DNA from: Escherichia coli
GTDB lineage: Bacteria > Pseudomonadota > Gammaproteobacteria > Enterobacterales > Enterobacteriaceae
Assembly (NCBI RefSeq): GCF_017348835.2
Contig: NZ_CP071375.1
Direction: 5' to 3' (one strand)
DNA length: 64,000 nucleotides
Of this stretch, positions 173-3,100 are shown in pieces. Position numbers: made by a program. Position 1 is the stretch's first letter. Each line of letters begins with the position of its first letter.

Positions 173-3100
173 TGATGACTTTTCGCCGTAAATAACTCCA
201 GGTTTACGGCGAGTTTGTGAAAAGAGCGTTTTTTGATATTTTTTTGTGAGTAGAATTTGTAATGCTTAGACGTTCTTATTAACTCAAGGAGTCCGTCATG
301 AGCAAAATATCAGATTTGAATTATTCTCAACACATTACATTAGCCGACAATTTTAAACAAAAAAGTGAAGTTTTAAATACCTGGCGTGTTGGAATGAATA
401 ATTTTGCCCGAATTGTCGAGGGGCAGGATAACACAAGAAATATCCTTGATCCTAAGACATTTTTGGAGTTTTTGGTAAAAATATTTACCTTGGGTTATGT
501 GGATTTTAGCAAACGCTCCAACGAAGCGGGTAGAAATATGATGGCTCATATTGAGTCCTCATCTTATATCAAAAATAATGATGGCAGTGAAATAATGCAG
601 TTTGTTATGAATAATCCTGAAGGGGAGCGAGCGGATTTATCTAAGGTGGAAATAGAAATTACACTTGCCTCAGCTTTTAATAATGGGATTCGTGAAGGAC
701 ATACAGCCATTATATTTTCACAACCTGATGGTTCGACTAATCCTTATGAAGGAAAATCCTTTGAAAGAAAAGATGAGAGTTCATTACACCTGATTACTAA
801 CAAGATTCTGGCGTGTTACCAACGCGAAGCTAACAAGGAAATAGCTCGTCTATTAAATATTCCGCAGGAGTTAAATAATCCTCATGACTTAAATTACTCG
901 CAGGTGAGTTGTAAAAACTCAGTTGATTCTACGATTACGGATTTATTAGAAAAACCATTGAACAATGCATTATTAGCAATAAGGAAAGAACATCTGCTAT
1001 TAATGCCTTATATGTGTAATGAATCGATTTCATACTTACTTGGTGAAAAATGGACACTGAAAGAAATAGATGCCCTTAACGCCTTAAATAATTATCTTAT
1101 TAATAATAAGAAAGCTACTGACAATGAAATTAATGACATCAAAGTTAACCTGTCTCATATTCTTATTGATTCCTTAGATGATGCGAAAGTTAACCTTACA
1201 CCGGTTATCGGTTCGATTCTGGAGACTTTTTTAAAATCCCCATATATTAATGATGTAAGAATACTGGATTGGTGTTTTAATAAAAGCATGCAATATTTTG
1301 GTGATTCTGAAAAGATAAAGTATGCATGCTCTGTGATAAATCATATTGATTTTAGCTGCGATCAATCTAAAATTAAAATAGCTGAGACCTTATTTTTTTA
1401 ATCTCGATAAAGAACCCTATGAAAATAGCCGTAAATTACAGGAATTGATTTGGGATAAGTTGGTTGCGTATGTCAATGATTTTAACTTAAGCAATCAAGA
1501 AAAATCACGCTTAATACTAAGGTTATTTGATGATGTTAAGTTGCTATTTAATGAAGTGCCTGTCAGCATTTTAGTAAATGATATTTTTTTGAAGGATTTT
1601 TTCATGAGGCAACCTGATTTTGCGAAGTGGTACTTCTATCAATTACTTAAGAAGTATGAGGGCGAACAGCTGTATCTTAATGAGTTAGGATATGTTTATG
1701 GTAATGAAGAAAAAACAAATGAAATTGTAAAAAAACATCCGGGTTATGTCATTAAGATTTTTGAAGAAAAGATGGGTAATGAATTAAAAATTAGAACAAG
1801 AATGATGAAAATCCTCCGGAATGGCAAAATCAATATATATGAATATATGAATATATGAATATATGAATATATTAATAATGAACAGTTGGGAAAATTAAAT
1901 CCTCCGGAAGATTTACGTATAGTAATAGAAAAATTTGGGTGGTAGAATAGAACTATTACTACATAAAATAATGTGATGCCGGGATAGTTTTGTATTTCCC
2001 GGCATCTTTATAGCGATATCAATTATTTACTGAGCGTCGCGACCATCACCGCTTTGATGGTATGCATACGGTTTTCCGCCTGATCAAAAACAATGCTGGC
2101 GGCAGATTCGAAGACCTCATCAGTCACTTCCATTCCGCCATGTAGGCCAAACTCTTCCGCCATTTTCTTACCAAGCGTCGTCTGGTCGTCATGAAACGCG
2201 GGCAGGCAGTGGAGGAATTTGACCTCCGGGTTACCGGTCAACTGCATCATCTTGTTATTCACCTGATAATCACGCAGCAATGCAATCCGTTCCGCCCATT
2301 TCTCTTTTGCTTCACCCATCGACACCCATACATCGGTATAGATAAAGTCAGCACCTTCTACTCCTTTGGCTACATCTTCCGTCAGCGTAATATTCCCGCC
2401 ATTTTGCTGTGCCAGGGCGCGGCATTCCGTAACCAGCGCAGCTTCCGGCCAGCATGCCTGTGGCGCGACCAGACGCAAATCCAGACCGGTAAGCGCCGCA
2501 GCTTCGAGCATCGAGTTTCCCATGTTGTTACGCGCGTCACCTGCATAGACCAGCGTCATTTCGTTGAATGCTTTGCCGGGCAAATGCTCCTGCATGGTGA
2601 GAAGATCCGCCAGCAGCTGCGTGGGGTGAAACTCATTGGTCAGGCCGTTCCATACCGGCACGCCAGCGTATTCCGCCAGTGTTTCGACAATCTCCTGACC
2701 ATAGCCGCGATACTGAATACCGTCATACATGCGACCAAGCACGCGGGCAGTGTCTTTAATCGACTCTTTATGACCAATCTGGCTGCCGCTTGGGCCGAGA
2801 TAAGTAACACGAGCACCCTGGTCATATGCGGCAACTTCGAAAGAGCATCGGGTACGAGTCGAGTCTTTTTCGAAGATGAGCGCGATGTTTTTACCAGTGA
2901 GTTTGGCTTCTTCTTTACCGCTTTTCTTATCGGCTTTCAGCTTCGCGGCTAACTGCAACAGGCTGTTGAGTTCAGCTGGCGTGAAATCGAGTAATTTCAG
3001 GAAATGCTTATGATAAAACCCGGACATAGATCCCTCCTGTGGCTAACGTCTCAATGAATTAAAATTCAATTTATATGGATGATTATTCATTTGCAAGTCT

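Follow-up and report, generated by a model that had tools for sequence, protein, structure and literature searches.

Introduction

Contingency loci are simple sequence repeats that shift the reading frame of phase-variable surface and virulence genes in Haemophilus, Neisseria, Campylobacter, and other bacteria (Moxon et al.). Here, we describe an array of 8-bp units near the 3′ end of a yjgL (= icaR) homologue of Escherichia coli, located in a 64,000-nucleotide stretch of contig NZ_CP071375.1 (assembly GCF_017348835.2), hereafter the window. The array resembles contingency loci in that its short repeats, not a multiple of three in length, lie inside an open reading frame (ORF) for a host-facing protein and change copy number frequently. 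Unlike contingency loci, however, it allows no ON/OFF alternation at three or more units, its tract is not conserved across alleles, and it belongs to a gene that is silent or in decay in E. coli and that has already undergone a frameshift in this strain. Taken as a whole, the array is very probably an octanucleotide variable number tandem repeat (VNTR) that arose by replication slippage in the 3′ coding region of a decaying gene. Coordinates are those of the window, and features of yjgL lie on its plus strand.

In Shigella, icaR is activated by MxiE/IpgC and its product is a type III secretion substrate, whereas in E. coli that lacks MxiE/IpgC it is silent; the gene is low in GC, often truncated, and regarded by its describers as a probable fossil (PMC9241512), with similar findings in PMC9769918. 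C-terminal truncations in Shigella and E. coli have been ascribed to insertion sequence (IS) insertions and deletions (PMC9241512), and a term search found neither “tandem” nor “frameshift” in the main text of that paper. The array shares with those truncations the gene, the C-terminal loss, and the reading as a fossil under relaxed selection. It differs in that the truncation comes from an 8-bp expansion, joined in this strain by a frameshift in a T run.

The same gene holds two loci used in multiple-locus VNTR analysis (MLVA), namely CVN002 (generic E. coli scheme, Lindstedt) and O157-34 (PulseNet/Izumiya O157 scheme). Primer sequences for both, taken from PMC8143711 and the supplement of PMC10062581, matched K-12 yjgL exactly, with a K-12 CVN002 amplicon of 488 bp (~12 units by the published formula). 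In the window, the O157-34 primers matched exactly at 814-837/988-1008 and those of CVN002 matched with 2-3 mismatches at 739-760/1026-1046. Like the array, CVN002/O157-34 is a strain-variable VNTR in yjgL with a presumed origin in slippage. However, its unit is an 18-bp in-frame sequence (LNNPQE-type) at 853-894, present in ~2 units here (Tandem Repeats Finder [TRF], period 18, 2.3 copies), so that gain or loss of units alters the length of the protein but keeps its frame. By contrast, the array of 8-bp units disrupts the frame and adds a stop, and its position ~950 bp downstream is covered by neither amplicon. Identity with CVN002/O157-34 was therefore ruled out, given primers that bracket 739-1046 and 814-1008 and a unit of 18 bp vs. 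8 bp. Primers for EH26-7, EH111-8, EH111-11, EH111-14, EH157-12, EHC-1, and EHC-6 were unmatched near yjgL, which also ruled out these named typing loci, in a comparison that left out EHC-2 and EHC-5. A literature search with the repeat sequence found no paper containing the array, and the literature found on yjgL reported only IS interruptions or point mutations. The variable repeat is thus apparently previously undescribed.

Results and Discussion

Read directly from the window, four perfect head-to-tail copies of TATATGAA fill 1836-1867. They are preceded by a partial copy, ATA, at 1833-1835 and followed by a degenerate terminal unit, TATATTAA, at 1868-1875, bearing out a sequence-only reading that had placed four full copies and partial flanking copies at the 3′ end of yjgL. 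TRF reported 1835-1882 with period 8, 6.1 copies, 92% matches, and a score of 82, the second-highest in the 64-kb window after a 96-bp array at 8948-9339. Even when as many as 3 mismatches were permitted, the 32-mer was absent from all 100 dinucleotide-preserving shuffles. The tandem repeat is genuine and beyond chance, and as expected of a VNTR, it changes between strains in whole-unit steps, differs among otherwise identical haplotypes, and is constant inside a clone. We also observed a 13-bp direct repeat, AAATCCTCCGGAA, on either side of the array (1809-1821 and 1897-1909), a pair that could mediate an 88-bp deletion.

Copy number at this site varies widely among relatives. Matches to a 156-bp query spanning the array were obtained in 725 genomes (E ≤ 1e-30), and record spans among 60 evenly spaced rows were 140, 148, 156, 164, 172, 180, and 220 bp, equal to 2, 3, 4, 5, 6, 7, and 12 units (4, 6, 12, 17, 8, 2, and 1 rows, respectively). 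Searching with a synthetic one-unit query gave matches in 1,881 genomes, and among 60 sampled rows, 21 had at least two units (2 to 9) and ~38 (~63%) had the one-unit length. Scaled up, this sample suggests that ~12% of the 5,426 complete E. coli genomes (~660) have an expanded array, and the 156-bp query sample was consistent with this estimate. Fetched sequences confirmed 1, 2, 3, 4, 5, 7, 8, 9, and 12 units, and 17 metagenome contigs covered the same range. Across E. coli, copy number therefore runs from 1 to 12 units, far from the invariance that would have refuted the sequence-only reading.

The arrays also vary in composition, as some carry TATATAAA units or are without the terminal TATATTAA. 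Writing G for TATATGAA, a for TATATAAA, and t for TATATTAA, expanded arrays had structures such as GGGt, GaGGt, aGaGGGGt, and all-G, and some ended in tt. Variant TATATAAA units were seen in five fetched relatives (L013, L014, L025, L027, and L044), and patterns such as GaGaGGGt and aGaGGGGt imply that 16-bp double units were duplicated too. The K-12, O157, and BL21 alleles have no array. A scan of genome contigs for three units returned 10 hits, all in unrelated taxa and none in a representative of another Escherichia species, and the array is therefore not a conserved element.

Differences in unit number were found between copies of the gene that are otherwise the same. The window and PE164 have 0 substitutions in 1,685 bp, yet carry 4 vs. 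3 units, and three pig isolates from the USA, the UK, and China (L038, L039, and L041) likewise have 0 substitutions, yet carry 5, 6, and 7 units. Judging from these alignments, array copy number appears to change faster than point mutations accumulate. Within clones, by contrast, the array was stable, with the same length in E. coli C, C122, and NCTC122, and again in WG5 and its three derived lysogens. The latter observation also bears on whether errors of sequencing or assembly could account for the differences in copy number, since some platforms are prone to error in short AT-rich repeats and homopolymers. However, all arrays are at most 100 bp long and lie in finished genomes, discrete 8-bp steps recur in hundreds of independent assemblies as well as in metagenome contigs, and independent sequencings of the same clone agree, so that an artefact is barely credible.

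The unexpanded site is preserved in other alleles. In BL21, it reads TATGTGAA-TATATTAA, and the intact 550-residue coding sequence (CDS) runs ~30 codons further. In STEC276 (L008), a single TATATGAA is followed by TATATTAA alone, and the intact 548-residue CDS ends ...NIYEYINNEQLGKLNPPEDLRIVIEKFGW* at a TAG equivalent to window 1943-1945. By this comparison, the array is an insertion of extra units within the CDS, 29 codons ahead of the ancestral TAG at 1943-1945. The pair TATATGAA-TATATTAA would be the ancestral proto-repeat, an imperfect two-unit sequence encoding ...YEYIN..., of which the first unit was presumably amplified to 2-12 copies in one allele family. The first extra unit shifts the frame, and from the third unit onward, an in-frame TGA ends translation and removes the conserved last 29 residues. 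Past this point, the array sits downstream of its own stop. Because it does so, further gains and losses leave the protein unchanged, and copy number could drift freely. As a source of the first duplication, an 8-bp IS target-site duplication was considered and rejected, because slippage on the imperfect two-unit repeat is more parsimonious and no IS remnant is present.

To follow the effect on the protein, we placed 0 to 12 units between the window flanks and translated the resulting alleles. One unit gave the full-length tail (...YINNEQLGKLNPPEDLRIVIEKFGW, also given as ...NIYEYINNEQLGKLNPPEDLRIVIEKFGW) and two units gave an alternative 8-residue tail (...YMNILIMNSWEN, also given as ...NIYEYMNILIMNSWEN). 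All alleles with 3 to 12 units shared the ending ...NIYEYMNI*, with translation stopping at one position, the TGA of unit 3 (in the window, TGA 1856-1858 within unit 1852-1859). Three or more units yield one identical product because an 8-bp unit, read in triplets, has been through each of the three phases by the end of the third copy. As the upstream sequence fixes the entry phase and the unit contains a TGA, the TGA of unit 3 is always in frame. Natural genomes agree, as the same protein, WP_033803171.1, is annotated in Z503 (4 units), TW14425 (7 units), and NCTC9699 (9 units). In one relative with variant units (L044), translation is instead cut short by a TAA in the third unit and not by a TGA. 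Other relatives' alleles carry the notes “internal stop” or “frameshifted; internal stop” from the Prokaryotic Genome Annotation Pipeline (PGAP).

These translations change what had been concluded from the window alone. The sequence-only reading had placed the yjgL stop codon in the third copy; a TGA does lie there, but it is a premature stop made by the expansion, which ends a 137-codon remnant ORF, and is not the native stop of the gene. The further claim that any copy-number change would shift the frame and alter the C-terminus and stop does not hold, since only the 1- and 2-unit alleles differ from the rest, and the states of 3, 4, and 5 units at and next to that of the window are covered by this result. 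That account also lacked two facts, namely that the array is itself the lesion, in an ORF that normally reaches 1943-1945, and that the gene is already frameshifted ~440 bp upstream.

The shared end product argues against the idea that 8-bp gains and losses reversibly switch or diversify the C-terminus of the type III substrate YjgL/IcaR to adaptive effect. The idea draws on a unit length indivisible by 3 within the ancestral yjgL ORF, on highly polymorphic copy number, and on a protein that is a secreted, host-facing substrate in Shigella. However, most one-unit steps are silent, as all states with at least three units give one truncated protein. Full length is reached only at one unit, and as a single unit no longer forms a perfect tandem array, reversion to that state should be rare. 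Nor does the tract look maintained, being missing from the K-12, O157, and BL21 families and reduced to a single unit in ~63% of the closest family. Unit counts, grouped by remainder after division by three, fell into 14, 21, and 15 rows (156-bp query) and 7, 7, and 7 rows (one-unit query), with no bias toward arrays that preserve the downstream frame. This lack of bias fits neutrality, although the rows are not phylogenetically independent. Moreover, the gene of this window has an upstream frameshift, and it is silent in E. coli without MxiE/IpgC. Adaptive switching is thus quite unlikely.

A related possibility is that copy number acts as a graded attenuator by setting the amount of the C-terminal module made through UGA readthrough. 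Arrays of 4, 7, and 10 units would keep the downstream frame with UGA interruptions only, and readthrough would then give some full-length IcaR with a YEYMNI-type insertion. Such attenuation, or a variant in which expansion was positively selected to shed the module, is very unlikely.

In the window, the array lies in a gene that is already inactivated. The 5′ part of the yjgL/icaR homologue occupies 298-1401, where the ATG at 298 gives a 367-residue product that ends at a TAA (1399-1401) brought in frame by an added T. This T belongs to a T7 homopolymer run at 1393-1399, which is T6 in intact alleles and imposes a +1 frameshift that inactivates the gene in this strain. Downstream, the ancestral yjgL frame survives as the 137-codon remnant ORF at 1445-1858 (TTG start), which is out of frame with the yjgL start because of the +1. 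In frame with it follows the severed rest of the ancestral ORF at 1859-1945, which encodes IYEYINNEQLGKLNPPEDLRIVIEKFGW and ends at the native TAG 1943-1945. Because the frameshift lies upstream, array copy number cannot affect the start-codon product in this strain. After inactivation by the T6 to T7 slip, the array would be a neutral microsatellite in a pseudogene remnant.

Comparisons with close relatives suggest an order of events. Apart from 3 substitutions, the window gene differs from the intact STEC276 allele in having one rather than two copies of a 24-bp unit, three more 8-bp units, and the added T. PE164, with 3 units and 0 substitutions relative to the window (4 units), has the T7 run as well, and so does F2_81, with 1 unit and 1 substitution. 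Because the near-identical T7 relative F2_81 has one unit, the frameshift most likely came first and the expansion second, in a dead gene.

The wider state of the locus supports relaxed selection on yjgL, an AT-rich, horizontally acquired gene, as do the published reports of silence and fossil status. Its GC content is 28-37%. When 180-2025 was compared against the 5,426 E. coli genomes, identity was mostly 80-95%, and only 2 genomes reached at least 99%. There are several distinct yjgL allele families, and the diversity of the gene is far above that of a typical core gene. Other genomes have IS insertions within the gene (IS1 or IS903), and PGAP calls many yjgL alleles pseudogenes. Further slippage-prone repeats in yjgL are the 18-bp CVN002/O157-34 repeat, the 24-bp unit, and the T run.

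Several considerations weigh against a neutral VNTR in a decaying gene, the first of which concerns the tail that expansion removes. The C-terminal motif KLNPPE[DN]LRI.I...GW is kept in the K-12 (604 residues), BL21, and STEC276 proteins, which are otherwise divergent. Because the motif is retained across such proteins, the tail that expansion strips can be regarded as conserved, and its conservation indicates, as far as these sequences go, that the tail once mattered. Tail loss has also occurred in several array variants and haplotypes, including G-only arrays, mixed G/a arrays, and arrays with two t units, and this repetition could reflect selection rather than drift. Second, the repeat, its polymorphism, its consequences for translation, and the upstream frameshift are direct observations; replication slippage we infer from the pattern of variation, and neutrality and the order of events are likewise inferred. 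Third, the proposed order of events presumes that recombination played no part and that no array shrank back to a single unit. Fourth, the T7 run could in principle be an assembly error, yet two independent complete genomes (L001 and L042) have it too. Finally, the frequencies come from two 60-row samples rather than a census, and their rows are phylogenetically non-independent.

The first of these points can be taken further, as expansion may have been favored for removing the conserved 29-residue tail, for example as a costly or immunogenic domain, with copy number drifting only afterward. Expansions on several haplotypes and in several structural variants suggest repeated origins. They occur in about a third of the genomes with this 3′-end family, and truncated CDSs with an intact upstream frame (503, 519, and 527 residues) are common. 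However, unrelated lesions elsewhere in the gene, such as IS insertions and the T7 run, fit a gene decaying as a whole rather than one that specifically sheds its tail. The one-unit state is still the majority in the allele family (~63%), and recombination could have carried a single origin across backgrounds. Adaptive truncation is thus unlikely, and the array would appear to be neutral, consistent with slippage in a decaying gene.

We also considered whether copy number tunes an antisense promoter in the array or the termination or stability of the transcript of the neighboring argI gene. One minus-strand promoter-like match (1859..1832, 9/12 positions) does overlap the array. However, the region held 9 such matches vs. 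8.9 expected from shuffles, and the minus strand downstream of the array is antisense to yjgL alone. Moreover, argI ends at 2023, a GC-rich hairpin at 1975-2006 separates it from the array, and the array is missing from most E. coli. A regulatory role is therefore highly improbable.

The practical value of the array is modest, and its biological surprise is low. For typing, it offers a polymorphic 8-bp marker that separates otherwise identical yjgL haplotypes across lineages from various pathotypes and hosts (enterotoxigenic E. coli, Shiga toxin-producing E. coli, pig-associated strains, E. coli C, and S88), and its position near the repeat of two standard MLVA schemes could add resolution to them. 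For annotation, the labels “frameshifted,” “internal stop,” and “hypothetical protein” (503/519/527 residues) largely reduce to the 8-bp repeat, plus the T-run frameshift in a few genomes, although the differences in length among the 503-, 519-, and 527-residue proteins originate upstream of the array. Slippage also provides an added route of decay for icaR beside the described IS insertions, consistent with the published view of a fossil gene. More generally, a repeat whose unit length is indivisible by three need not signal phase variation; where one phase of the unit includes a stop codon, three units suffice to fix the stop.

The identity of the host gene is indicated by both position and homology. 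The window opens with the end of tabA (yjgK), followed by the AT-rich yjgL homologue from 298 and then by argI (named argF by PGAP), which is convergent to yjgL at 2023-3027 on the minus strand. Both neighbors flank the gene in all fetched relatives but STEC388 (L040), where an IS1 lies upstream. The intact STEC276 protein shares 74% identity with K-12 YjgL, and the first 34 residues are invariant; by these measures, the gene is yjgL/icaR. In Pfam, only a sub-threshold match to a SopA-like central domain was found (16-25 bits vs. a cut-off of 27), and NCBIfam gave no match, so the label “DNA-binding protein” is without family-model support. Within the gene, the 24-bp unit GATTTTAGCTGCGATCAATCTAAA (DFSCDQSK) at 1348-1371 is single in the window and duplicated in L003, L005, L008, and L009, a further difference in copy number that keeps the frame.

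A few further observations concern the flanks. Promoter and terminator scans of the region found nothing exceeding the shuffled expectation. A GC-rich inverted repeat, GATGCCGGGA...TCCCGGCATC, occupies 1975-2006 between the convergent yjgL and argI; the hairpin is probably a terminator shared by both genes, although a simple terminator scan did not call it. Upstream, ~60 bp before the yjgL start, AGAGCGTTTTTTGATAT at 223-239 resembles an MxiE box and retains G6, T12, and A16, the positions mutated in PMC9241512. A scan upstream of yjgL that allowed up to 3 mismatches to the MxiE box consensus found no site, and AGAGCGTTTTTTGATAT has more than 3. Elsewhere in the window, the top-scoring tandem repeat at 8948-9339 consists of a 96-bp unit in 4.1 copies (95% identity, TRF score 682) and resembles repetitive extragenic palindromes/bacterial interspersed mosaic elements (GCCTGATGCGACGCT...GCCGGATAAGGCG).

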